From the NCBI GenBank assembly GCA_023136205.1, contig JAGLRQ010000076.1:1-29724 (forward strand): a DNA stretch of 29,724 bases, written 5' to 3'. The notes under the pieces are model-generated. The model was not told the DNA's origin. It was given only the letters and a program-made list of their open reading frames with translations, and did no database searches. Within the stretch, counting starts at the first letter, position 1; each line of letters begins with the position of its first letter. Below, in pieces: positions 6,047-21,445 of the stretch. This stretch comes from Candidatus Auribacterota bacterium (GTDB taxonomy: Bacteria; Auribacterota; UBA6266). Made by a program: the position numbers and the translations under genes.

Positions 6047-7495
6047 TCAAACAACATTCTTTTTAAAAACAGCTTCTTCAATACCGCTAATAATGTCCAT
6101 TTTCAACGCGTGAGGATTTGAAGGATTGAACATATATCTAAGTACCTGACATTTAGAAATTACCTGATCATAGTCCTTAATATCTTCTACATTACATAAA
6201 ACTATTTTAGTTATGGGAAATCTACTTTTTATTATCTCATTTATCAATCCCTGATTTATGATATTTGACGCGCGTTGAAAAATCACAGTTAAATATATAT
6301 TTAAACCGTTTTTCAACATATTCAAAGCTTCCCGCAGGTTATCCGCTATTTCTATGGTGAAATATTTACTTAAATTACTTTTTATTTTACGTAACGCCTC
6401 TATATCTTTACCAATAAACATGATAGGATAATTTTTATAGTCAATAGACGATTCAACGAGTTTAAAATTTTTCCTGTTTTTCTTATAATACTTTTGAAAA
6501 ACCTCAACCACTACAGGGTGAAATTGTTTGCCTCTACCTTTAAAAAGTTCTTCCATGGCCGATTTATGGGTAAGCGCGTCCCGATAAGGCCTGGGAGAGG
6601 TCATAGCATCATAGGCATCTGACACGGGCAGAATCCATGGAGCTATATTATCAAAGCTCTTTGAATTACCTTGCGCTTTTTTAGAAATTTCTTTACATTT
6701 CATACCATCAGGATATCCTTTACCATCATAATGCTCCTGATGGTGTAAAACAATTTCAATAATTTTTGTTAACCTGGGTATGGTTCTTAGAATATCCGCT
6801 CCCACTTTTGGGTGTTTCTTGAGTTCTTCGAACTCGTCCCGCGTTAATTTGCCCGGTTTTCTTAAAACCTCATCTGAAACAGCAATCTTCCCTATATCAT
6901 GAAGCAACCCGCTCATCCTGAGCGCATCTATTTCTTCTGATGAAAATCCCATAACTTCAGCCATTCCCGCGGAGTATTCAGCCACTCTCTCTGAATGCCC
7001 AAATGTATATCTGTCTCTGGCATCTAATGCCTTGGCCAGAGCTGTAATAGCCTGTATAGTACCCTGTTTTAATTCTTCATATAAACGCTTATTCGCGTCT
7101 GCTTCTCTTCTGAAATCTTCAAAAAGTTGCGCGCTGATTTTAGGAAGAGCTTCCTGTTCCAGTTTTTCATAGTCTAAAGGTTTTAAAAGATAATCATTAA
7201 CCCCCAATTCTTTCCCTCTCCGCATAGATTTTTGATCTGTCGCTTTACCCGTTATAATAATTACTTTAATAGTTTTATCTATCTCTTTTATTTTTTTGAA
7301 GACTTCGAATCCATTAAAACTTCCCGGAGCTAACATAACATCTAAAAGGACAAGATGAGGCCTTTCCTTCTTTATTATGGACAAAGCCTCCTCTCCTCCT
7401 GAAGCACCATATGTTTGATACCCCTTGCTGCTGAAAAAATTACACATTGTTTCCTGGATAAATTCTTCATCATCCACTACCAAAAGTTTAAGCAT
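6047..7495 (-). CDS. Response regulator with an HD-GYP c-di-GMP phosphodiesterase output and a C-terminal degenerate receiver-like domain
   Basis: REC domain: LLVVDDEE, HLVLLD(52)VML, IIITGKA, LLKPL. HD-GYP domain: GHSERVA, LLHDIGK, HHQEHYDGKGYPDG, DAYDAMTSPRPYR. Residues ~356-478 look like a receiver fold (IMFIGKD...REALNML...LTVIFQ...IVLCN...FNP) but lack the acidic pocket. AGGAG RBS present. Confidence 0.85.
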   Translation of the reverse strand: MLKLLVVDDEEFIQETMCNFFSSKGYQTYGASGGEEALSIIKKERPHLVLLDVMLAPGSFNGFEVFKKIKEIDKTIKVIIITGKATDQKSMRRGKELGVNDYLLKPLDYEKLEQEALPKISAQLFEDFRREADANKRLYEELKQGTIQAITALAKALDARDRYTFGHSERVAEYSAGMAEVMGFSSEEIDALRMSGLLHDIGKIAVSDEVLRKPGKLTRDEFEELKKHPKVGADILRTIPRLTKIIEIVLHHQEHYDGKGYPDGMKCKEISKKAQGNSKSFDNIAPWILPVSDAYDAMTSPRPYRDALTHKSAMEELFKGRGKQFHPVVVEVFQKYYKKNRKNFKLVESSIDYKNYPIMFIGKDIEALRKIKSNLSKYFTIEIADNLREALNMLKNGLNIYLTVIFQRASNIINQGLINEIIKSRFPITKIVLCNVEDIKDYDQVISKCQVLRYMFNPSNPHALKMDIISGIEEAVFKKNVV

Positions 7496-7519
7496 AAAAT
7501 TTCTCCTGCTATATTTAGG

Positions 7520-8629
7520 TCATACTGAAGCTACCACAGGAAGAATCACAGTAAAAGTACTTCCTTTTCCCACTTCACTTTTTAGATCCAACCTACCGCC
7601 AAAAGTCTTGACGATATTATCAATTATATAAAGCCCCATACCCATACCTTCGCGTTTAGTTGTATAAAAAGCTCCAAAAACTCTTTGCAAATTTTCTTCG
7701 GGTATTCCCGGGCCCGTATCCCTAACAGCTATGTGAACCCAATTATTATCTGCCTTTCCCCCGACGATAATTTTACCGCCCGTTTCACTCATAGCCTGAC
7801 AGGCATTACGAATGAGATTGAGGAATATCTCCTCAAAATGGACAAAATTGCCTTCCACCCTGGGAATGCCTTTAGCCATCCGCTTGCCAATTTTTATGTT
7901 AGTTAAAAGGGATTTGAGTCCATCTCTGGCCATCTCAATGGAACTATCCACAACCTTATAAATATCTATTTTTTCCACATGGCCGGGTTTAGAAAAATCG
8001 TTAAGCCGCTCTACAATCTCTTTTGAACGCTTCCCGTACTCTTTTGTCTTCGCTAAAAGCCTCATTATTTCAGGATCACGGAAGCCTTTCAGGCGCAATT
8101 CCTCAATAATTCTATCTATCCCAAGATTTACTCCTGAAATTGTATTTTTAATTTCATGTCCAATGCCGGCAGAAATTTCAGCAATAGTTATTAACTTTTC
8201 AGATTTTATCAGGGACTGTGTAGCCGCTTCTAAATCCTCGCTCATCTTATAATATTCAATAGCCTGTTTAATCATAAGGCTTATCTCATTCATCGCAAAA
8301 TCTTTACGGATATAACGATAGATATCTCCTTTATTTATCGCGTCAACAGCCACATCCATATCAGAATAAGCTGTAATCAAAATTCTTACAATTTTTGGAT
8401 GCGTCTCTTTAATCCGGCTTAGCAATTCTACTCCGGAAATTTCAGGCATGCGCTGGTCAGAGATAACCATAGAAATATCTTCTTTATTCACAACATCCAG
8501 AGCATCCTTAGCACTTGAAGCAGTAAACAAACTGTACTCCATCCCAAAAGCAAAAATCAGATTTTCCAGATTATTCAATTCATCATCAACTAATAAAATG
8601 TTGTAGTTTTTATAGTTCAGTTTTCTCAT
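7520..8629 (-). CDS. Receiver-histidine kinase fusion (REC + HisKA-like + HATPase_c), soluble
   Basis: REC domain: ILLVDDE, MVISDQRMPEISG, LITAYSD. H-box: SAGIGHEIKNTISGV. N box: LIRNACQAM. G1: VRDTGPGIP. G2: GMGMGL. No TM segments and no DNA-binding domain. Confidence 0.85.
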   Translation of the reverse strand: MRKLNYKNYNILLVDDELNNLENLIFAFGMEYSLFTASSAKDALDVVNKEDISMVISDQRMPEISGVELLSRIKETHPKIVRILITAYSDMDVAVDAINKGDIYRYIRKDFAMNEISLMIKQAIEYYKMSEDLEAATQSLIKSEKLITIAEISAGIGHEIKNTISGVNLGIDRIIEELRLKGFRDPEIMRLLAKTKEYGKRSKEIVERLNDFSKPGHVEKIDIYKVVDSSIEMARDGLKSLLTNIKIGKRMAKGIPRVEGNFVHFEEIFLNLIRNACQAMSETGGKIIVGGKADNNWVHIAVRDTGPGIPEENLQRVFGAFYTTKREGMGMGLYIIDNIVKTFGGRLDLKSEVGKGSTFTVILPVVASV

Positions 8630-8655
8630 TGTTTTCTTAACAAACTCCTATATAT

Positions 8656-11358
8656 TCACTTAGGCTGTTTAACCGGCAAAATCATACTAAACTCTGTTCC
8701 CTTATCAGGTATACTTTTTACATCAATCGTTCCATAATGGGATCGAATAATGTTATAACAGATACTCAATCCCAGGCCGGTATTATGGCCTTCCTTTTTA
8801 GTAGAAAAGAAAGGCGTAAATATTTTATCAAGATGCTCCATGGGAATTCCCGGCCCATCATCAGCTACGGTAATCAAAACTTTGTCTTCTTTTTGACTTG
8901 TCTTAATCCAAATCGTACCTTTATGTTTCATCGCTTGACAACCATTTATAAGCATATTCATAATAACCTGGTTGATTTCCTCTATTTTACATTCTATTTT
9001 TGTCAGCTTGCCGTACTCTTTACAGACAGTAATTTTATCTTTAATTGTAGGTAAAACAATATTAACAGTATTGTCAATGCCCTTGTTTAGATCACAAAAA
9101 GCCATGCCTTCTTTATTTTTACTGGAAAAATCCAGCAAGGAATTAATAATAAAAAGAGAATGTTCTATCGCATTATCATTGGTATCCAGCGCTTTTACAA
9201 GACTTTTATAAGCGTCCTTTATATCAAGCTTGCCTTCCGACAGCATAAACAAACGTTTGCCGATACCATCCAGTCCCGCCCGCAAACAGTAAATATTGTT
9301 TTTTATTTCATGCGCCACACCAGCAGCCAGTTGACTGGCGGACTCTAACCGCGCGGTATGCACCAATTGTACCTGGGCTTCTTCAAGCCTATGTAAAGTC
9401 TTCTTTAACTCCAGATTGCTTTTGTTTAATCGTGCCTGAAGTTCTCTTTTAGTCAATAAAGAATCTGTTACCGCCCGCAGCTCATTAGAATTAAAAGGTT
9501 TAGCAACATATTGATCCGCGCCATGCTTTAAACCTATAATTTTATCCTCAACGGTGGCTCTAGCTGTCAATAATATAACCGGCACATGCTGTGTCTGCTC
9601 ATTGCTTTTAATTTTCTCACATAATTCATTGCCATCCATCTCAGGCATCATCACATCTGAAATAACCAGGTCGGGTATTTTGTGTCTCACCTTATCCAAT
9701 CCCTGCCTGCCATTATAAGCAACAGACACATTATAGAATTTGTTTAAACTCCTGGCAATATTTCCGGACAAATCCTTATTATCCTCAACTACCAGAATAC
9801 TTTTTCGTTCCTTATTATCACTTACTTCTCCTTTCCCCTCTTCCGCAGAATACCCAGCTCCCTGTTCCAGATCGGATAGTTGAACCTGTAACAAACCGAT
9901 AGTTTCGCCGTCTTCCCTTTCCGTCTTCCGGCGGTCATCTTCTCTTCTCTCTTCCTCCCGCCGATTTCCGCGCCTGCGTTCTACGGATCCATCACTCATC
10001 TCAAATTCAGGCCTTTTATCAATTTGCTCCGTTGTAAAATGATCCTTACCCTTTAACAGCTTCACGGTAAAAATTGACCCTTTGCTTAGTTCACTTGTTA
10101 CGCCAACAGAACCGTGGTGCAGATTAACAAATTCCTTCACAAGGCAAAGCCCAAGGCCTGTGCCCTCATATTTGCGCGAACTTGAACCATCTACCTGGTG
10201 AAACCTGTCAAAGATATAAGGGATATCTTCCCGTGAAATCCCAATGCCTGTATCACTTACACTAACCTCAATATAATTTTCAGACTCCTGAGTCTTAACG
10301 TTTACTGTCCCGCCCCTATCAGTAAATTTCAAAGCATTGCTTATCAGGTTTGAAAAAACCTTTTCCACCTTTTCAGTATCCACATAAATCTCAGAAAGCC
10401 GGCTGGCCGGCTCAAATACTAAATTAATTCCCATTCCCTTAGCCCCTGCCAAAGCAGCTGCTATTATATCTTCCAGGATGCTATTTAAATTACTTGAGTC
10501 TACTTTTATCTCCATTTTTCCTGCCTCAACTTTGGAGATATCCAGTATTTCATTAATACGTTTCATCAATTTGTAGGCATTATTTAAAATCGCTTTCTTT
10601 TCATTCCTGTTCTCTGGAACTAAAGTTTCCCCGCGTTCTGCCAGTACATTTTGTATGGGAAGAATAATATTGGTCAATGGTGTACGAAGTTCATGGCTGA
10701 CTCTGGAAAAAAGCTGATTTTTGAGTCTATCCAGTTCCTTTAAATCATCTCTTGCTTGTTTAAGCTTAAATCGGGCCATAAATTCTTTGAAATGTAACCG
10801 TGAAGTAAAATAAGTCCCTACTACAGCTATAACCATCGCAGACAAAAGAAACATATTATTATTTATCAGCATCCCTATGTTCTTTACCTCATCATACAAA
10901 AATATTGGTATAATGTATGACGCATAGATAGCAAGGCATATAATCAATGTATACTTAATTCCCCATGGCACTAAAACTGCCATAGCCAAAAATACCAAAT
11001 TTAAACCAGCATAATAAGTAGACTTATATCCTCCAACAAAACGAATCATCAATGATATAGAAAAACCCACACACAAGAAAGCTACCGCCTCGATAGATAT
11101 TCCATACTTTTCAGCTTTATGAGTAAAACTGAAAATGAATAAAGCAACAACTACGGAGGTACAAGCAGCTCTGATAATCAATAACTCTTTCAGATATGCT
11201 GGGTTTACAAAATAGTCAAGGAGAGCAAATAAAGGAACAAGTGCAGATATAAGAAAACATGCAACTCTAGAAAAGATTAATGCCCTTTCTTTTCTATATA
11301 GGGCAAAACCATTTTTAATGTTTAATTCTTTTTCTGCTTGGGATAGAACAACACTCAT
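8656..11358 (-). CDS. Membrane sensor with two complete histidine-kinase cores separated by a receiver (TM sensor - HisKA/HATPase - Arg/Glu-rich linker - REC - coiled coil - second H-box/HATPase)
   Basis: About 6 closely packed TM helices in aa 20-190 with no large periplasmic loop. Kinase 1: FSRVSHELRTPLTN...DTGIGI...GTGLGLCLV. Linker: VERRRGNRREEERREDDRRKTEREDGE. REC: ILVVEDNKD, LVISDVMMPEMDG, ILLTARA, AKPF. Kinase 2: AAGVAHEIKNNIYCL...NGCQAM...DDGPGIP...GLGLSICYN. Confidence 0.85.
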   Translation of the reverse strand: MSVVLSQAEKELNIKNGFALYRKERALIFSRVACFLISALVPLFALLDYFVNPAYLKELLIIRAACTSVVVALFIFSFTHKAEKYGISIEAVAFLCVGFSISLMIRFVGGYKSTYYAGLNLVFLAMAVLVPWGIKYTLIICLAIYASYIIPIFLYDEVKNIGMLINNNMFLLSAMVIAVVGTYFTSRLHFKEFMARFKLKQARDDLKELDRLKNQLFSRVSHELRTPLTNIILPIQNVLAERGETLVPENRNEKKAILNNAYKLMKRINEILDISKVEAGKMEIKVDSSNLNSILEDIIAAALAGAKGMGINLVFEPASRLSEIYVDTEKVEKVFSNLISNALKFTDRGGTVNVKTQESENYIEVSVSDTGIGISREDIPYIFDRFHQVDGSSSRKYEGTGLGLCLVKEFVNLHHGSVGVTSELSKGSIFTVKLLKGKDHFTTEQIDKRPEFEMSDGSVERRRGNRREEERREDDRRKTEREDGETIGLLQVQLSDLEQGAGYSAEEGKGEVSDNKERKSILVVEDNKDLSGNIARSLNKFYNVSVAYNGRQGLDKVRHKIPDLVISDVMMPEMDGNELCEKIKSNEQTQHVPVILLTARATVEDKIIGLKHGADQYVAKPFNSNELRAVTDSLLTKRELQARLNKSNLELKKTLHRLEEAQVQLVHTARLESASQLAAGVAHEIKNNIYCLRAGLDGIGKRLFMLSEGKLDIKDAYKSLVKALDTNDNAIEHSLFIINSLLDFSSKNKEGMAFCDLNKGIDNTVNIVLPTIKDKITVCKEYGKLTKIECKIEEINQVIMNMLINGCQAMKHKGTIWIKTSQKEDKVLITVADDGPGIPMEHLDKIFTPFFSTKKEGHNTGLGLSICYNIIRSHYGTIDVKSIPDKGTEFSMILPVKQPK

Positions 11359-11367
11359 TTTTAAACC

Positions 11368-13167
11368 CTACCTAGAGAGAATTAGACAATTACACGTGTC
11401 TTTTAAAATTGCATGAAAAGAGTTCTTAAATTGCTCGTCCATAATTTCCAACCATTCCAGCATATCATCATTATCTCTGTATATTAAATACCAGTCCAGA
11501 GCAAGTTCCATATAAGCTCTAGAAGAATTCCCTGGAGCATATTGACCAATAATCAAGGTGCCATCCGAATCGAGCCTGTCAAACAGACTTTTTAAAACTT
11601 TCTTACAGACATTTTCACTTAGGTAATCCAGCAAACCAAGAGTATAAATAAGGTTGTACTTTTGCTCTGTTCGATTTTTAATCATGGATTTTATTGACTC
11701 GGCTAAAAAATTAATCTTAATAGAACTATTTCTCTTTCGCTTAAAAAGTTTCTCTTCTATATAAAATAAAGCTCGTTCATCAAAATCCAACAAGCAAAAC
11801 TCAGAGTTAACATTCCAACTATCTTCTTTAAGAAGACCTTCTACCTCTTTAGCTGGTCCACAACCTACACTCAACACCCTTAGCAAGCTATTCTCTTTCT
11901 TTAAAGACTGTTTACCCTTTTCTAAAATAAGATCTTTTATATATTTCGTTCTCAACCTCACCACTTGAGCCGCATCTACATTATAGCCATGTTTGCTTAG
12001 TAATTTTCCCAAGAGAGTTTCTCCATCATAAGCGTTTCCATTAATCATATTTATAATCCCATAGTCACCACTATATCCAAAAGGCCTATCAACAGCTCTC
12101 CTAATAAAAGGAGACTGGAGCAGTAAATGGTGTAATTGGTTCTGGAAATACTTCTTATGAATCTCATGTTCTTCCTTTTTTAAATTCTTTATCAGATCAT
12201 TTAATTTTAAAAACCAGGCATTCATTGTCTTTGTAAAAGATTTAATTACAGCATTTAGGATATCTTTTTCAATATTATGCTTTAAACCCAAATCTAAATT
12301 TGCCAGCCGTATTTCCTCTTTATTTAATTTTGCCTCTATGGATTCCAGATAATATCTCATATCCGCGACAATTTGCTTAAACTCTCCACTAACTTTATTT
12401 CCAATGGGCAGCATATGTAAAAACTCTTTGAGATCATTCTTTATATCCTCGCTCTTCCCCATATAAAGAATCTTGTCCACTTCCAGCATTGACTCTTCAA
12501 GCTTTAAACCCACCACCAACGCCCTGCCTTGTTCTCTTAAATCAATGACAGCAGCTCTGCCTTCATACACTTTTTTGTAGCCTATAACAACCTGTACATC
12601 CTCCAGAACCTCTCCTACCCTTAATGTCTCTGATTCTTCAATTTCAGCCTCTTTAATCATAAATGCCAGTCCATACTTGGAAAAATTTAGCATTTCATAA
12701 CTGTTATAAGTACCAGCATTATTTTTAAACGTAACTATCTTATTGATATTGCCTAATTGTTTATTACCGTAACGGGGAAGCCTGAAGCGGAGCTTTGCCG
12801 TTTGGCCGCTTACACTTTTTTTCCCGGCACCTGGAAAATGTGTATCTTTCACAAACTGCAAGCCTATTCTGTGGCTAATTCCCTCTTCATACACTTTTTC
12901 GCTATACACTACCATAGCCCGCGGGAAATAGGCCTTTCTACCGCCCTTAATTACGGTTATATCGGTTAAGGGAGTATTTACCAGAAAAAACCCCTCTTCT
13001 TCCGGCATAAGAAAAGATATCCCTTCATCGCTTATATCTATTATTTCCTTTTTAAACTTAGCCCCCTTTGGGATAGATAATGGAATTTCCACATAGTATT
13101 TCTCTGAATGATTTTCAAGCTTCAGCCGCTTGCTTTTTCTTTTGTCTGTCTTGTCCTTGGAAAGCAT
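11368..13167 (-). CDS. Tandem PilZ-domain protein fused to a class I SAM-dependent methyltransferase (possibly PhcB-like)
   Basis: aa numbering is from the track TTG at 13182. PilZ-1 has R15-K-S-K-R19 (RxxxR) and D49-I-S-D-E-G54 (DxSxxG). PilZ-2 has N166-F-S-K-Y-G171, but its upstream Arg motif (RFRLPR) is non-canonical. The C-terminal domain has RVLSVGCGPAKE (SAM motif I), LLDFDERAL and LIYTLGLLDYL, preceded by RPFGYSGDYGIINMI. The ATG at 13167, with GAAGGGG 5 nt upstream, is the more likely start; the track TTG is at 13182. Confidence 0.7.
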   Translation of the reverse strand: MLSKDKTDKRKSKRLKLENHSEKYYVEIPLSIPKGAKFKKEIIDISDEGISFLMPEEEGFFLVNTPLTDITVIKGGRKAYFPRAMVVYSEKVYEEGISHRIGLQFVKDTHFPGAGKKSVSGQTAKLRFRLPRYGNKQLGNINKIVTFKNNAGTYNSYEMLNFSKYGLAFMIKEAEIEESETLRVGEVLEDVQVVIGYKKVYEGRAAVIDLREQGRALVVGLKLEESMLEVDKILYMGKSEDIKNDLKEFLHMLPIGNKVSGEFKQIVADMRYYLESIEAKLNKEEIRLANLDLGLKHNIEKDILNAVIKSFTKTMNAWFLKLNDLIKNLKKEEHEIHKKYFQNQLHHLLLQSPFIRRAVDRPFGYSGDYGIINMINGNAYDGETLLGKLLSKHGYNVDAAQVVRLRTKYIKDLILEKGKQSLKKENSLLRVLSVGCGPAKEVEGLLKEDSWNVNSEFCLLDFDERALFYIEEKLFKRKRNSSIKINFLAESIKSMIKNRTEQKYNLIYTLGLLDYLSENVCKKVLKSLFDRLDSDGTLIIGQYAPGNSSRAYMELALDWYLIYRDNDDMLEWLEIMDEQFKNSFHAILKDTCNCLILSR

Positions 13168-13294
13168 AATGCACCCCTTCAACTTTTGATGTTAAAATCT
13201 CAAATAAGGACGCTATAAAAAAAAACCTAAGCGGTAATTTTAACATAATCAAGTACCTTTTTGAAGAACTAAACAGTTTTTTTACTTTGTAGTT

Positions 13295-15922
13295 CTATCT
13301 GCCGCCTTTATGTGGTTTAAGTATATCCAAAGCATATATCAGCTCTTCTTCCTTCGTATTTACTTCCCCGTCAAGTTTTGCCGCGAGGGTTTTGTTAAGA
13401 ACTTCTTTAAACTTCGGGGATGGTATCTTCCTCTTCTTTATCAGAGATTTCCCTGTTATCTGAAGTTTTACTTTTTTTAAATTCTCAAGGTAGTTTACTA
13501 TCCTCTGTTTAGCCATTCGTGAATCAGCCTTAGCAAGAAGAAAGAGCAAAATCTCAGTTGAACATATATTAAGGCAAAAATATATCTCACTGTTCTTTAA
13601 TTTTTTCTTCTGAGAAAGGTAGCTTAATCTTACCTTGCTATCTCTTTTCATAGGCACTATCCTGTCACTAACTTTCCTGGAAAATATGAATTTTTTACAG
13701 ACAACTTCGGCCTGTTTTATACTCAAATCACCTATAAACCCTAGAAAATACACAAGCCACGGAGTTATCCTGCCGCTAATAAATGAAAGGCTGTACCAGG
13801 AAAGTGTTTCTTCAATGTCTGAAAACATTTTCTCCGACCGGCTGTCAAACCTGATTGACGGATGAATAAACCTTAATTCGTTAAATTCGGCCATTCTTCT
13901 TATCGCGTTTACAGGTTTTGGCTCACTCAGAATAAGAACTATTTCGTTTTTGACCCTCTCATACGCCACTTTCTCGAACATGCCTATACTAACAGCATTT
14001 TTAATCAGGTTTTTAGTATGCCTGTCTATTTTAAACCCATACCTTTGTTCAAACCTCACAGCCCTGAAAATCCGCGTGGGGTCATCAACAAAACTGAGAT
14101 TATTAAGGACACGCACAACCCCGTCTTTAAGATCCTTTTGCCCTCCGAAAAAATCAATCAGTTCCCCAAAACCAACTTCATTTATTTTCACAGCCATTGA
14201 ATTAATCGTAAAATCCCGCCTGTAAAGATCGTGTTTTATCGAACTGTATTCTACTTTCGGCAACGCGCCCGGCTCCTCATAATATTCCGTTCTTGCGGTA
14301 GCCACATCTATCTTTTGCCCCGAAGGAAGAACTACAATAGCAGTAGAAAATTTTTTATGCGAAACAGTATGTCCCTTTAAATGCCGGGCAAGAAGACGGG
14401 CAAATTCAACTCCCCTATTTTCCACCACTATGTCAACATCAAAATTAGCAACCTTTAACAACAGGTCCCGCACTATCCCCCCCACAATATACGCCTTGCA
14501 ACCCATCGAATCCGCGACGCTGCCGGCAACACGCAGGATGTCACGGATACCGCCGGGGAAAAAAGTTTCTACCTTGTCTCTAACATCTCTTAATACAGGA
14601 GAGTTTCCTTCTTTCGCGGGCAAGAAGTAACCCAAATCCTGTTCATGCAGTATTTTTAAAAGGTCGTGCTTTAGTATCAAACCAACCAGCTCATTTCTAG
14701 AATTCACAACGGGAATAACAGCATGCCTTGTTTCATGCATTGAGTCTTTTATTTTCGGGACTTCATCGATCTCAGAAACACTCTTAAAATCAGGAGACAT
14801 ATAATCAGACACTTTTTGGGAACCAAGCCCGTGAAGAATGGCTCTATCCGCATCGTGTCTCGACATAAAGCCAACAACCTTTTTCCTCATAACAACCGGC
14901 ATTTCATCTACCGCATAGCGAACCATTAATTCCTTGGCATCTTTAATCTCCGTGCTTTTTGTAACTGATTTCACATGGGTAAGCATTATATCCTTCGCCG
15001 TAATTGGAAAGGACAAATATTGGGAAAGGGCATCTTTAAGTTTTTCCTTAGCCTCTACCAGTACAACCTTTTTTAATGTTACAGAGGCGGCTGAAGGATG
15101 CCCGCCTCCCCCGAGTTTCGCCAGAATTTTTGAAACATCAATACTGCAAACGCCGCTTCTGGCAATTACATGTACCCGGTTATTCATTTCAATAACCGCA
15201 AAAATAACATTAATATCTTCTACATCCCTTAATCTATGGACAACCATTCCCAGGTTGGGAACATGGCAAGAAGCAGAGGCCGATGCTATTGTAATATGCC
15301 AGTTGCCCATACGATGTTCTTCAGAACCATTAATCAATTCTTTCAGCAAAGCCATTTGCTCCGAATCAAGCCCGCCTCCCAGAAAAGAATGTATCATAGA
15401 GATATCAGCTTCACACGAAAGGAGAAAAGAAGCAGCTTTAAAATCCGCGGCAGTTGTAGTAGGATACGTAAAATGCCCTGTATCTTCATAGATTCCAATA
15501 AGCATAACCGTTGCTTCCACAGGCTTTATTTTTACTTTTTCCCGCATTAATTTTTTCACAAGTATTGTTGTGGTAGAACCAACAGGCAGGTAATTGTACC
15601 GGACATCTAAAGGCATATCTTTAGGTTTATGATGGTCATAAACTCTAACCGGTAAGTTATACTCCTGTATCCACTCAAACGGCTTTCCTATTCTTGAACC
15701 CGGAGCCGCATCCACAATGATAACTTCTGTAATCTTCTGGGGATCAGGTGTTTCCAGGATGGGCATCATAAGGCTGTTTCCGCACACGTTTAAAAAACAT
15801 TCAACATTTGAATCCATGGAAGCAGGCAACACCACTTTAGCATCAGGAAAAAGCTTTGACGCCGCCACTAAAGAGGCAAGCGCGTCAAAATCAGCATTAA
15901 GATGAGTAATGATTATTTTCAT
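13295..15922 (-). CDS. DHH/DHHA1 phosphoesterase - tandem CBS - class II tRNA nucleotidyltransferase/poly(A) polymerase family fusion (CCA-adding-type enzyme)
   Basis: DHH motifs: HLNADFDALAS, IIVDAAPG, VYDHHKP, YEDTGHF. DHHA1 motif: GGGGHPSAAS. Two CBS modules at aa ~310-430. Nucleotidyltransferase head: YIVGGIVRDLLL, NFDVDIVVE, RRDFTINSMA, DDPTRIFRAVRFEQRYGF. Confidence 0.8.
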   Translation of the reverse strand: MKIIITHLNADFDALASLVAASKLFPDAKVVLPASMDSNVECFLNVCGNSLMMPILETPDPQKITEVIIVDAAPGSRIGKPFEWIQEYNLPVRVYDHHKPKDMPLDVRYNYLPVGSTTTILVKKLMREKVKIKPVEATVMLIGIYEDTGHFTYPTTTAADFKAASFLLSCEADISMIHSFLGGGLDSEQMALLKELINGSEEHRMGNWHITIASASASCHVPNLGMVVHRLRDVEDINVIFAVIEMNNRVHVIARSGVCSIDVSKILAKLGGGGHPSAASVTLKKVVLVEAKEKLKDALSQYLSFPITAKDIMLTHVKSVTKSTEIKDAKELMVRYAVDEMPVVMRKKVVGFMSRHDADRAILHGLGSQKVSDYMSPDFKSVSEIDEVPKIKDSMHETRHAVIPVVNSRNELVGLILKHDLLKILHEQDLGYFLPAKEGNSPVLRDVRDKVETFFPGGIRDILRVAGSVADSMGCKAYIVGGIVRDLLLKVANFDVDIVVENRGVEFARLLARHLKGHTVSHKKFSTAIVVLPSGQKIDVATARTEYYEEPGALPKVEYSSIKHDLYRRDFTINSMAVKINEVGFGELIDFFGGQKDLKDGVVRVLNNLSFVDDPTRIFRAVRFEQRYGFKIDRHTKNLIKNAVSIGMFEKVAYERVKNEIVLILSEPKPVNAIRRMAEFNELRFIHPSIRFDSRSEKMFSDIEETLSWYSLSFISGRITPWLVYFLGFIGDLSIKQAEVVCKKFIFSRKVSDRIVPMKRDSKVRLSYLSQKKKLKNSEIYFCLNICSTEILLFLLAKADSRMAKQRIVNYLENLKKVKLQITGKSLIKKRKIPSPKFKEVLNKTLAAKLDGEVNTKEEELIYALDILKPHKGGR

Positions 15923-19944: not shown

Positions 19945-20666
19945 TTGCCAAACCCAAGCCTTAGAGCCAAAACTTCCGGTAAACCCGCATTAATAATCTT
20001 ATCTTGTGCAACCTTAAAATTATATTCACATCTCCTGAACTCCAGAAGCATAGTTTCGGTATCATAAAAAACCATACAAATTCTGGAATCTTCATCCCTC
20101 GGCTGTCCGACCGAACCCACGTTAATTATATATCCTGACTCTTTATTCAACTTCATGGCGGGGATGATTTCTTTTTTTACAATTTCATCCCCTACTTCCA
20201 AAACCATCGGAATATGTGAATGCCCTACAAAAACTATTTTTGCGTTAGCATGTTTGAATGTACTCGCGGCTTCTTCTTCACTAAATAAATATCTCCATTC
20301 TTCAGGCTTTGGAAGAGACGCGTGAACAAGGGTAAAACCATTTTCTTCATACACCATCGGGAGTGAGGAAAGATATTCCTTCTCTCCAGGATCAAGCTTG
20401 TTGTAAGTCCAAATCACAGCAGCAGCAGCTTGCGGATTAAAATTAGCATAATCCTGAACACCTGAAGCAGCAAGATCGTGGTTACCGGCTATAACAATAT
20501 CAAAGTTTTCTCTGGCTATCGTGATACATTCACGGGGATCCGCGCCATAACCGACAAGGTCGCCAAGAAAGTACACCTTATCAACACCTTTTTGTTTAAT
20601 TTCCTCCATAGCCCTGTGTAAAGCTTCCAGGTTACCATGAATATCACCAAGAAGGCATATCTTCAT
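19941..20666 (-). CDS. Metallophosphoesterase (calcineurin-like, YfcE/MJ0936-type)
   Basis: All signature motifs are present: LGDIHGN, GDLVGYG, GNHD, GHSH, GSVGQPRD. Confidence 0.8.
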
Positions 20667-21445
20667 TGGCTCTTGCCTAATTCTTTTTTTCTTCGATTGT
20701 AAAATTTTTCTACAACCTTTTTATGAGTCAGATCCTTATTATTAAGCGGTTCTTTTTTTTCTTTTTCATCAACTTCTGCCAGCAGATTCTTCCACACATG
20801 GAAACTTGCTTCCTTATCGCCGGAATCATAAAGAGCATGGGCATACATTCTCGAGACAAAAGAGGGGCAGTCAAATCGCGCCGCCTCAGCGAAATATCCG
20901 GCAGCTTCTTTAAAATCTTTCACCTTATTGAAATAAGTCCATCCTGTTTCAAAATATATATTGTAAACATCAGGATTGTTCTCTATCCCCAGCTTAAGGA
21001 AATCAAGGCCCTGCGCAATCCAGAAATGCTGGTCTCTCATCCTCTCTTGAACAGTCCTGCGCGGACTTACCCCTGCCTGGTAACAAATATTATAAGCCGC
21101 GTGCCACCCTCCCAGTATCCATACATTAAGAAAATTGGGCTGCAAAAAACCTATAGTCTTATAAAGAGGCAGGCATTTGTACCACTGGCCGTGATGCCAG
21201 TACTCATCAATTTGAAGCCATAAAATGTCAGCAGCAATACCTCTGAACCCGCCTAAAAGCATACCGGTAATTTCTTGTCCGGGATGCAGATATATGCGGC
21301 TGTGAAGTTTTTCCTCCACACGTATTTCATTAATCCCCTTAATCCCAATGTCAGGAGTTAACCTGAAACCGTTCTGCAAAAAATAAAGGCAAATTACAAA
21401 TACTGCCAAAACCAGAACAATCCATACTATCCTTAACATTTTCAC
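20663..21445 (-). CDS. N-terminally membrane-anchored helical-repeat (TPR-like) protein of unknown function
   Basis: One N-terminal TM segment (IVWIVLVLAVFVICLYFL). Then LLGGFRGIAADILWLQIDEYWHHGQWY and TPR-like helices (YFETGWTYFNKVKDFKEAAGYFAEAARFD...YAHALYDSGDKEASFHVWKNLL). Lys-rich tail. GTG start overlaps the upstream stop (GTGA); an ATG 6 nt downstream is an alternative. I do not recognise a family. Confidence 0.4.
   Translation of the reverse strand: MKMLRIVWIVLVLAVFVICLYFLQNGFRLTPDIGIKGINEIRVEEKLHSRIYLHPGQEITGMLLGGFRGIAADILWLQIDEYWHHGQWYKCLPLYKTIGFLQPNFLNVWILGGWHAAYNICYQAGVSPRRTVQERMRDQHFWIAQGLDFLKLGIENNPDVYNIYFETGWTYFNKVKDFKEAAGYFAEAARFDCPSFVSRMYAHALYDSGDKEASFHVWKNLLAEVDEKEKKEPLNNKDLTHKKVVEKFYNRRKKELGKSQ

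Follow-up and report, generated by a model that had tools for sequence, protein, structure and literature searches.

A phc-type signalling cassette with predicted links to cyclic di-GMP in an uncultured bacterium of the Auribacterota

A block of four tightly spaced genes in Candidatus Auribacterota bacterium (GenBank assembly GCA_023136205.1, contig JAGLRQ010000076.1; the 29,724 nucleotides that were analysed are called the window hereafter) encodes, in order of transcription, a methyltransferase homologous to PhcB over the whole length of the latter, a membrane sensor kinase with two kinase cores, a receiver-controlled histidine kinase (HK) and a response regulator with an HD-GYP domain (genes 1 to 4; Table 1). 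Homology and conserved gene order together indicate that the components encoded by genes 1-3 share ancestors with PhcB, PhcS and PhcR of Ralstonia and Cupriavidus, which bears out the original prediction of a distant phc-type module outside the Proteobacteria. A partial protein 100% identical to gene 1 is recorded from a metagenome-assembled genome of Candidatus Aureabacteria. The host phylum, earlier known under that name, belongs to the Planctomycetes-Verrucomicrobia-Chlamydiae (PVC) group, whereas the bacteria in which phcBSRQ is known are Betaproteobacteria. PhcB makes 3-hydroxy fatty acid methyl esters.

What sets this lineage apart is the combination of a PhcB-type synthase that carries PilZ domains and a terminal regulator of the HD-GYP type, whereas the fused double-core kinase is common to the family. 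As far as can be judged from sequence, this suggests that cell-to-cell signalling is coupled in this locus to bis-(3'-5')-cyclic dimeric guanosine monophosphate (c-di-GMP). The reading that we favour, with moderate confidence, is that a PilZ-responsive synthase makes a PhcB-type methyl-ester signal, which is sensed by a MASE8 domain and relayed, in a manner resembling the Lvr system of Leptospira, to an output protein of the RpfG type.

A PhcB-family enzyme at the head of a conserved cassette

The homology of gene 1 to PhcB is, judged by sequence alignment, real and not a mere resemblance. Residues 145-574 align with residues 6-434 of Cupriavidus PhcB (25% identity over 440 aa, E 6e-48 in BLASTP), and residues 145-604 match a PhcB alignment from end to end (hhalign probability 100, E 9e-77, 450 columns); these residue numbers refer to the 604-aa open reading frame (ORF), while the domains in Table 1 are numbered on the 599-aa protein. 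Comparison with the PhcB family had been put forward as a test, in which a best match to an unrelated class I family with no PhcB-family signal would have told against the idea, and it came out in favour of PhcB. The way to Cupriavidus PhcB led through a tblastn search of plasmids, which matched no Ralstonia record and found on a Paraburkholderia graminis plasmid a phc-like operon for a methyltransferase (468 aa), a kinase and two successive response regulators. This methyltransferase has 68-70% identity with proteins of Cupriavidus, and many metagenomic relatives bear the name phcB. In Cupriavidus (L013) the operon is phcBSRQ in its textbook form, encoding PhcB (463 aa), PhcS (443 aa; MASE8-HisKA-HATPase), PhcR (381 aa; a receiver, or REC, domain followed by a kinase core) and PhcQ (332 aa; REC). 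In addition, a homologue 36% identical to gene 1 and of the same architecture is named in IMG by the KEGG orthology definition of phcB, as are further homologues of this subfamily. A word-indexed search found only 13 close relatives of gene 1; with E values up to 1e-30 admitted, an exhaustive profile search returned 1,742 cluster representatives. The majority are 460-480 aa long and match profile positions ~140-600, and a minority of ~600 aa match positions 1-600.

In gene 1, Pfam places a class I methyltransferase core (Methyltransf_31/25) at aa 432-549 in 604-aa numbering, the generic methyltransferase families being only marginal matches, and PF12147 (Methyltransf_20), which is recorded for homologues, is absent from the Pfam scan of gene 1 itself. 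NCBIfam has no PhcB-specific match for gene 1, its sole match being CpaM at 21 bits, and a PDB search found no solved structure for any PhcB relative. The AlphaFold2 (AF2) model of the full-length protein, with a predicted local distance difference test (pLDDT) score of 82.8, contains a pair of beta-barrels, then a long helical domain and a Rossmann core. Its helical and Rossmann part resembles small-molecule O-/C-methyltransferases with helical lids (3ocj, natural-product O-methyltransferases, C-methyltransferase domains of polyketide synthases and UmaA) and is unlike protein methyltransferases, including CheR, in structural comparison. The modelled fold is thus compatible with a small-molecule methyltransferase.

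This bears on the idea that gene 1 encodes a CheR-like protein methyltransferase that adapts the adjacent kinase and makes no signal, which we regard as very improbable. Its one attraction is a weak match to the CheR domain that binds S-adenosylmethionine (SAM), with 18.7 bits and E 1.2e-3, but this match is below the cut-off of 27 and spans 53 residues only, the homology to PhcB extends over the full length, the nearest folds are those of small-molecule enzymes with a helical lid, and the kinase encoded by gene 2 has no methyl-accepting domain in Pfam. A CheR-like identity was therefore rejected, on the sub-threshold match and the small-molecule methyltransferase fold.

Gene order provides the second line of evidence. 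At least 572 stretches encoding relatives of gene 1 were found in GTDB species-representative genomes, and domains were tallied in the best 80 of them, which are mostly from Verrucomicrobiota and otherwise from Polyangiaceae and other Myxococcota, FCPU426, Nitrospirota, Binatia and some Gammaproteobacteria. There is room downstream of the methyltransferase gene in 75 of the 80 loci, and in 65 of these 75 a gene for a MASE8 kinase lies at -53 to +84 nt from it; the kinase has the fused MASE8-HK-REC-HK form in 48 of the 65. A REC-HK gene comes next in 44 loci, and eight loci are split like PhcS and PhcR. The wider family also has a member in culture, Oceaniferula spumae NT6N (L048). Methyltransferase relatives that are 28-71% identical and sit in unrelated neighbourhoods are likewise followed by MASE8-HK-REC-HK and REC-HK genes. 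All four genes occur in order in L001/L002 and in L095 (a methyltransferase with a single PilZ domain, MASE8-HK-REC-HK, REC-HK and HD-GYP), and L094, in which the contig is cut upstream, displays the last three, with REC-HK followed by HD-GYP; the fourth gene is therefore conserved in at least three other genomes, and the order of all four in a small clade. The conservation of the neighbourhood, which had been proposed as a check, is thus confirmed for the order of genes 1-3 across phyla and for all four genes in L001/L002 and L095.

The gene grouping is far beyond chance. That the four genes are functionally unrelated and merely neighbours in a long run of genes on one strand might be argued from the co-direction of all genes in the window and from uninformative promoter and terminator scans, but genes 1-3 keep their order in unrelated neighbourhoods of several phyla, the four-gene order and its visible last three genes recur as just described, and the gaps measure 9-26 nt. 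The chance that this explanation holds is negligible, and it is effectively refuted by the synteny data.

Several features of the related loci stand beside these results. The relatives in L004-L006 come from metagenome-assembled genomes (MAGs) labelled Desulfobacterales and encode a methyltransferase 58% identical to gene 1. Immediately upstream of their cassettes lies a gene for an IS200-type Y1 transposase (L004 3224-3661, L005 2427-2864, L006 482-919), and this adjacency, together with a wholly different neighbourhood, suggests that the cassette moves as a unit. A gene for a FadL/Toluene_X outer-membrane channel adjoins the PhcB-like gene upstream in L004 (1676-2980), L005 (879-2183) and L095 (1437-2885) and is absent from the window; these neighbours hint at a hydrophobic cassette ligand that crosses the outer membrane. 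In L096 (5187-10494), a 1230-aa HisKA_7TM-HK-REC-HK kinase is followed by an HD-GYP protein with a receiver of the gene 3 type, with neither methyltransferase nor separate Rec-HK, that is, a shortened relay with a different sensor. In other phyla, the receiver proteins of 360-420 aa encoded after the cassette lack a second Pfam domain, save a sub-threshold HisKA in L042, and thus add no link to c-di-GMP.

A proposed kinase relay and its output protein

Gene 2 contains HisKA/HATPase, REC and a second HATPase in Pfam, and gene 3 REC and HATPase. The match of gene 2 to MASE8 (PF20968) has 17.3 bits, below the cut-off, and covers model positions 2-152 of 154, MASE8 being matched strongly both by Cupriavidus PhcS and by the orthologues of gene 2. 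PhcS itself aligns with residues 18-438 of gene 2 (E 2e-23 in BLASTP), its N-terminus alone with residues 21-194 (E 5.5e-11), and the phosphorylatable histidine is found at a similar position in both (His222 in gene 2, His230 in PhcS; PMC11960443). Gene 3 is homologous to Cupriavidus PhcR from end to end (residues 10-364 against 10-370, 25% identity, E 2e-31) and is also a paralogue of the REC-HK module of gene 2, which is 30% identical to it along the whole module (E 8e-43). The known operons and the present block therefore share a MASE8 sensor, a PhcR homologue, gene order and tight spacing, and differ in that the sensor here is fused to a Rec-HK, making it equivalent to PhcS plus PhcR, before a second PhcR-like gene follows. 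None of the three kinase cores lacks its H, N or G boxes, nor any of the three canonical receivers its acceptor aspartate; the key residues are His222, Asp568 and His683 in gene 2, Asp58 and His158 (GHEIKN) in gene 3 and Asp52 in gene 4. Gene 3 joins a REC domain to a dimerisation and histidine phosphotransfer (DHp) domain and a catalytic (CA) domain, conserves the acceptor Asp as well as the His of the H box and lacks any further sensor domain, which places it in the Rec-HK class as defined in PMC13269768, where PhcR is named the prototype.

An HK-REC-HK protein followed by a REC-HK protein is also the layout of LvrA and LvrB in Leptospira. In that system, phosphate is transferred from H218 of LvrA (PAS-HK-REC-HK) to its own D524 and to D56 of LvrB (REC-HK), and from H161 of LvrB to LvrC (PMC5863495, PMC13269768). 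The relay from kinase to receiver to kinase that the original prediction had to assume, no Hpt domain being present, thus has a direct experimental precedent, and the spacing of the residues is comparable (H218/D524/H616 in LvrA and H222/D568/H683 here; D56/H161 in LvrB and D58/H158 here; PMC5863495). Among NCBIfam families, gene 2 matches LvrA best, but with 315 bits against a cut-off of 1200 (NF047465), and gene 3 matches LvrB with 81 bits against 500 (NF047466); on these scores, far below the cut-offs, genes 2 and 3 are not Lvr orthologues. LvrB was not among the matches of gene 3 at E below 1e-15 in a sequence search of the PDB. The Lvr system differs from the present cassette in that its proteins are cytosolic and use a PAS sensor, in that a methyltransferase partner is not described for it, and in that the downstream partner LvrC is an anti-sigma-type receiver (PMC13269768), where the present locus has an HD-GYP protein. 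The two kinase cores had been thought a novelty of this sensor, a claim that has to be given up: the fused form is that of the majority of the family, and the layout is known from LvrA/LvrB (PMC5863495).

Gene 4 consists of REC and HD_5/HD domains in Pfam (HD_5 at 116 bits) and a C-terminal extension. It scores 175 bits, against a cut-off of 400, with the NCBIfam family of response-regulator c-di-GMP phosphodiesterases, and its residues 134-336 align with PmGH (4mcw), an HD-GYP phosphodiesterase. Its N-terminal receiver, with Asp52, followed by a full HD-GYP domain, is the layout of the RpfG family. The HD motif (residues 199-200), the Lys, His226, Asp292, GYP (260-262) and RPY are retained, and seven of the eight PmGH-aligned metal ligands are intact. 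The eighth is affected by a change of the HHE motif to HQE (residues 252-254, window 6734-6742 on the minus strand), the Gln being aligned with His277 of PmGH. HQE is found only in gene 4 and in a 94%-identical metagenomic relative, P0284, whereas HHE stands in the orthologue of L001, which is 80% identical, and in 24 others among the full-length members that were aligned; the change is thus both real and recent, since P0284 shares it and all other aligned members lack it.

The C-terminal ~130 aa form a pseudo-receiver, since the acceptor Asp is always replaced, in the aligned subfamily by a hydrophobic residue that is followed by Gln. This REC-HD-GYP-pseudo-receiver subfamily comprises ~28 clusters at 40-94% identity, and its genes always come after those for HK-REC-HK or REC-HK kinases. 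It has an insertion of ~12-15 aa after GYP (gene 4 residues ~263-290), which in most members looks like a duplicated 'AQIIAVADxFD' ahead of the usual 'ILxVxDAYDAMTS' helix. The pseudo-receiver is weakly similar to REC domains of the PhcQ and gene 3 type, and its similarity to the REC domain of PhcQ (E 1e-4) is the only one between gene 4 and PhcQ; a query with the PhcQ-specific C-terminal domain matched in L012 and L013 only. Gene 4, which had been regarded as the counterpart of PhcQ, is consequently not so by homology, and phcBSRQ and the present block part company at the fourth gene.

A degenerate, catalytically weak gene 4 product might also act in a non-enzymatic way, through contacts of its HD-GYP domain and pseudo-receiver with other proteins, for example GGDEF or PilZ proteins, c-di-GMP not being lowered directly. 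We rate this as rather unlikely. The HQE motif of the window and its close relative would fit it, as would a conserved pseudo-receiver that never has the acceptor Asp, and RpfG-family members that lack a key His or have degenerate motifs are reported to act through interactions (preprint 10.1101/2021.11.05.467447); however, the same preprint describes robust hydrolysis by an RpfG without a key His, the other ligands and motifs of gene 4 are intact, a His directly precedes the motif (HHQEH) and every other aligned subfamily member is canonical.

The closest analogue of an enzymatic output is in Xanthomonas. In its diffusible signal factor (DSF) system, RpfC signals to the REC-HD-GYP protein RpfG. 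The present locus and Rpf/DSF are alike in having a fatty-acid-derived diffusible signal (putatively so here), a membrane kinase and a regulator of RpfG-family architecture that ties quorum sensing to c-di-GMP. They are unlike in that (i) the synthase is a methyltransferase here and a crotonase (RpfF) there, no crotonase (ECH) domain being found by Pfam in the four genes, (ii) a second kinase core takes the place of the HPt of RpfC and a Rec-HK step is added and (iii) the HD-GYP protein here has a C-terminal pseudo-receiver and the synthase has PilZ domains.

PilZ domains and a possible c-di-GMP loop

PilZ domain 1 of gene 1 scores 23.4 bits against a Pfam cut-off of 22.5 (aa 14-112 in 604-aa numbering), and its motifs, which lie on the barrel in the AF2 models, are canonical, RKSKR corresponding to RxxxR and DISDEG to DxSxxG. 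Most of the double-PilZ clade keeps them, with DINNEG and DIGEQG as the exceptions. In the AF2 model of residues 1-245 (pLDDT 77.5) there are two barrels with one and the same strand pattern, and the best Foldseek matches of this model in the PDB are MrkH, VCA0042, YcgR, PlzA and MotI (E ~1e-7, probability 1.0, ~230 columns); the PilZ fold of domain 2 comes from structure modelling, Pfam detecting domain 1 alone. The N-terminal 245 aa are hence modelled as tandem barrels like those of the two-barrel receptors (YcgR, MrkH, PlzA, VCA0042/PlzD and MotI). Unlike in these receptors, which are stand-alone adaptors or transcription factors, the barrels here are fused to a PhcB-type enzyme and both have candidate binding motifs. 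In YcgR the binding motif is found in the C-terminal barrel only.

Domain 2 aligns with residues 6-100 of PhcB, and its NFSKYG fits NxSxxG. The double-PilZ clade, Polyangiaceae (DVSAYG, DLSAYG) and a Nitrospirota MAG (NISDYG) retain this motif type, which has degenerated in Verrucomicrobiota (to LRLTRY) and PhcB proper (to NLQRKS); the N-terminus of Cupriavidus PhcB (L013 7001-7330) aligns with domain 2 and has no c-di-GMP motifs. It therefore seems, from these alignments, that PhcB itself carries a decayed PilZ-fold domain, a statement of which nothing was found in the open-access literature. PilZ domains had been described as an addition to the synthase, and this stands for the first, canonical one, by which gene 1 differs from PhcB, and falls for the second, which BLASTP and hhalign show to be homologous to the N-terminus of PhcB and which differs from it in keeping an NxSxxG-type motif. 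A double PilZ occurs in only three of the best 80 loci; the methyltransferase of L095, where an HD-GYP gene is also present, has a single and different canonical PilZ.

From these elements the following circuit can be proposed: (i) gene 1 would make a hydrophobic methyl-ester signal, by analogy with PhcB, the synthesis of which would be modulated by c-di-GMP on the PilZ domain(s), (ii) the MASE8 domain would sense the signal in the membrane and so control autophosphorylation at His222, (iii) the phosphate would pass from His222 to Asp568 and switch on the second core (His683), (iv) it would also reach Asp58 of gene 3, directly or via the His683 core, as it does from LvrA to LvrB, (v) gene 3 would autophosphorylate at His158 and hand the phosphate to Asp52 of gene 4, (vi) the phosphorylated HD-GYP protein would alter c-di-GMP turnover or partner binding and (vii) c-di-GMP acting back on the synthase would close the circuit into a loop. 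PilZ may thus gate signal synthesis through c-di-GMP binding, and a c-di-GMP feedback loop between signal synthesis and perception is plausible.

Several points weigh against this circuit. No HD-GYP gene lies within 8 kb in any of the best 80 loci, and the relatives in L004-L006, L007 and L009 have no adjacent HD-GYP gene; the c-di-GMP output is therefore no inherent part of the cassette. The hydrolytic activity of gene 4 is uncertain because a metal-ligand His is replaced in HQE. Pfam finds no match for the second PilZ of gene 1 or for the N-terminus of PhcB, even at E up to 10, and RFRLPR of domain 2 has the spacing RxxR rather than RxxxR. Identity to PhcB is low (~25%), so that substrate and product may differ. 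A diguanylate cyclase and a transcription factor are both missing among the window ORFs scanned with Pfam, and consensus scans for promoters and terminators neither support nor exclude one transcript for the four genes.

An alternative that dispenses with a diffusible signal is a cell-autonomous circuit, in which the molecule modified by the methyltransferase would be a lipid of the membrane or a fatty-acid intermediate, MASE8 would monitor the product or the membrane and the relay would serve as a homeostat of envelope or lifestyle via c-di-GMP. MASE8 is an integral-membrane domain of which the periplasmic part is nearly nil, the structural neighbours of the methyltransferase include the lipid-modifying UmaA, no export or diffusion step is visible from sequence, and the Pfam-scanned neighbours are of the housekeeping type, with no obvious quorum-sensing targets nearby. 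Nevertheless, we consider this alternative unlikely, for in the members that have been studied, those of Ralstonia and Cupriavidus, the product of PhcB is secreted and diffusible and is sensed by PhcS (PMC8578825, PMC11960443), the close pairing of synthase and sensor across phyla is the classic arrangement of an autoinducer system, and the FadL-type channel gene beside some cassettes suggests outer-membrane traffic.

Locus context and significance

The ORF listing reproduced the arrangement on which the original prediction was built, namely four minus-strand ORFs with intergenic gaps of 9, 26 and 24 nt, bounded by 112 nt upstream (counted from the TTG at 13182) and 149 nt downstream, and the Pfam scan did so for the domain contents of all four genes. 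The ORF finder gives gene 1 as 11368-13182, that is, 604 aa from a TTG start. Its start is most likely the ATG at 13167, hence 599 aa, because an AAGGGG motif resembling a Shine-Dalgarno sequence lies 6 nt upstream and close homologues begin at this Met; the upstream gap is then 127 nt.

Table 1. Features of the four-gene block, with window coordinates and the evidence for each
Feature	Coordinates	Strand	Evidence
Gene 1, PhcB-family SAM-dependent methyltransferase, 599 aa	11368..13167	(-)	ORF list, start choice, PhcB homology, AF2
Gene 2, membrane sensor kinase, 900 aa (MASE8, HisKA-HATPase, REC, DHp-CA)	8656..11358	(-)	ORF, Pfam, BLASTP against PhcS
Gene 3, Rec-controlled histidine kinase (REC-DHp-CA), 369 aa, PhcR/LvrB class	7520..8629	(-)	Pfam, PhcR alignment
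Gene 4, response regulator (REC, HD-GYP, C-terminal pseudo-receiver), 482 aa	6047..7495	(-)	Pfam, NCBIfam, alignments
Upstream intergenic region, probable operon promoter region, with ribosome-binding site and one sigma-70-like match (13265-13237)	13168..13294	(-)	Consensus match only, which is weak evidence
Gene 1, PilZ domain 1, aa 9-107 (599-aa protein); RKSKR aa 10-14, DISDEG aa 44-49	12847..13143	(-)	Pfam, AF2
Gene 1, predicted PilZ-fold domain 2, aa 125-225; RFRLPR and NFSKYG; homologous to N-terminal ~90 aa of PhcB	12493..12795	(-)	AF2, Foldseek, PhcB alignment
Gene 1, helical domain of the PhcB family, aa 230-423; invariant PF..R....P..Y.GD motif (KPxGYxGDY)	11899..12480	(-)	Invariant columns; helices with pLDDT >90
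Gene 1, Rossmann-fold SAM-binding core, aa 429-599; VGCGPA glycine motif at aa 434	11371..11883	(-)	Pfam Methyltransf_31/25, AF2 model
Gene 2, MASE8-type membrane sensor domain, aa 18-200; ~6 hydrophobic segments	10759..11307	(-)	Sub-threshold Pfam, PhcS match
Gene 2, C-terminal Rec-HK module, REC aa 519-632 and kinase core aa 660-900; paralogue of gene 3	8659..9804	(-)	30% identity
Gene 4, C-terminal pseudo-receiver, residues ~355-480	6056..6433	(-)	Conserved REC-like domain without acceptor Asp

Every ORF of at least 100 aa in the window that is not nested in a longer one is on the minus strand, so the co-direction of the four genes is uninformative. GC skew is negative over the window (1-29724), which, with the ORFs on one strand, agrees with a long run of genes that share the direction of replication. 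Promoter-like consensus sites number 37 against 24 expected, and the consensus scan found no terminator in the intergenic gaps. Hpt, GGDEF and LysR domains, the absence of which had been noted before, go undetected by Pfam in the four genes and in 20 further ORFs of the window, which leaves the block, unlike the phc system, without a PhcA-type LysR gene in that set; there is no EAL domain in it either, and the Rfam scan matched tRNA-Pro only, hence no c-di-GMP riboswitch.

The 20 other ORFs have domains of the housekeeping type, among them TrpRS, an M50 protease, ScpA/B, an enzyme of the DHH-CBS-CCA type, a XerC/D-like protein, LigA, an ABC-2 transporter and genes of the LpxA region. Directly upstream of the block (13295-15922, minus strand) lies the gene for an 875-aa fusion of DHH, DHHA1, two CBS domains, a poly(A) polymerase/CCA-adding head and an RNA-binding domain; L001/L002 have a long gene at the equivalent position, which is cut by the contig end and has no Pfam annotation. 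NanoRNases and enzymes that degrade pGpG have the DHH/DHHA1 fold, so that the fusion might conceivably be linked to c-di-GMP turnover. Between a gene for a calcineurin-like metallophosphoesterase and the ABC-2 transporter set sits an ORF of 260 aa (20663-21445, minus strand) that starts with GTG and matches nothing in Pfam.

In the open-access papers that were found, phc is treated as a system of Ralstonia and Cupriavidus or surveyed in Pseudomonadota only, to which a genomic survey of phc signalling was confined (PMC10653808), and none was found that links PhcB to PilZ, PhcB to Verrucomicrobia or other PVC bacteria, or PilZ to an autoinducer synthase. A wider proposal, which we make tentatively and think more doubtful than the circuit itself, is that the PhcB family was ancestrally controlled by c-di-GMP via an N-terminal PilZ, which would have decayed in Ralstonia and Cupriavidus and stayed functional in Auribacterota and some Myxococcota and Nitrospirota, being duplicated here, paired with an HD-GYP protein and drawn into a closed loop, and that phc-type signalling is widespread in Verrucomicrobiota, Myxococcota and other environmental phyla.

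What this may mean for the biology of these bacteria is fourfold. The apparent PilZ remnant at the N-terminus of PhcB offers a concrete hypothesis for the unexplained regulatory region of that protein. The locus is a natural cascade of three kinases and three receivers, in which Rec-controlled histidine kinases can be studied. If the proposed circuit is true, placing a second-messenger receptor on the enzyme that makes an autoinducer, and a c-di-GMP-type phosphodiesterase at the close of the relay, would tie quorum sensing to c-di-GMP by a direct physical link. Finally, the cassette of synthase, sensor and Rec-HK, which hundreds of species-level genomes from Verrucomicrobiota, Myxococcota and candidate phyla contain, may represent a new class of cell-to-cell signal in uncultured environmental bacteria.

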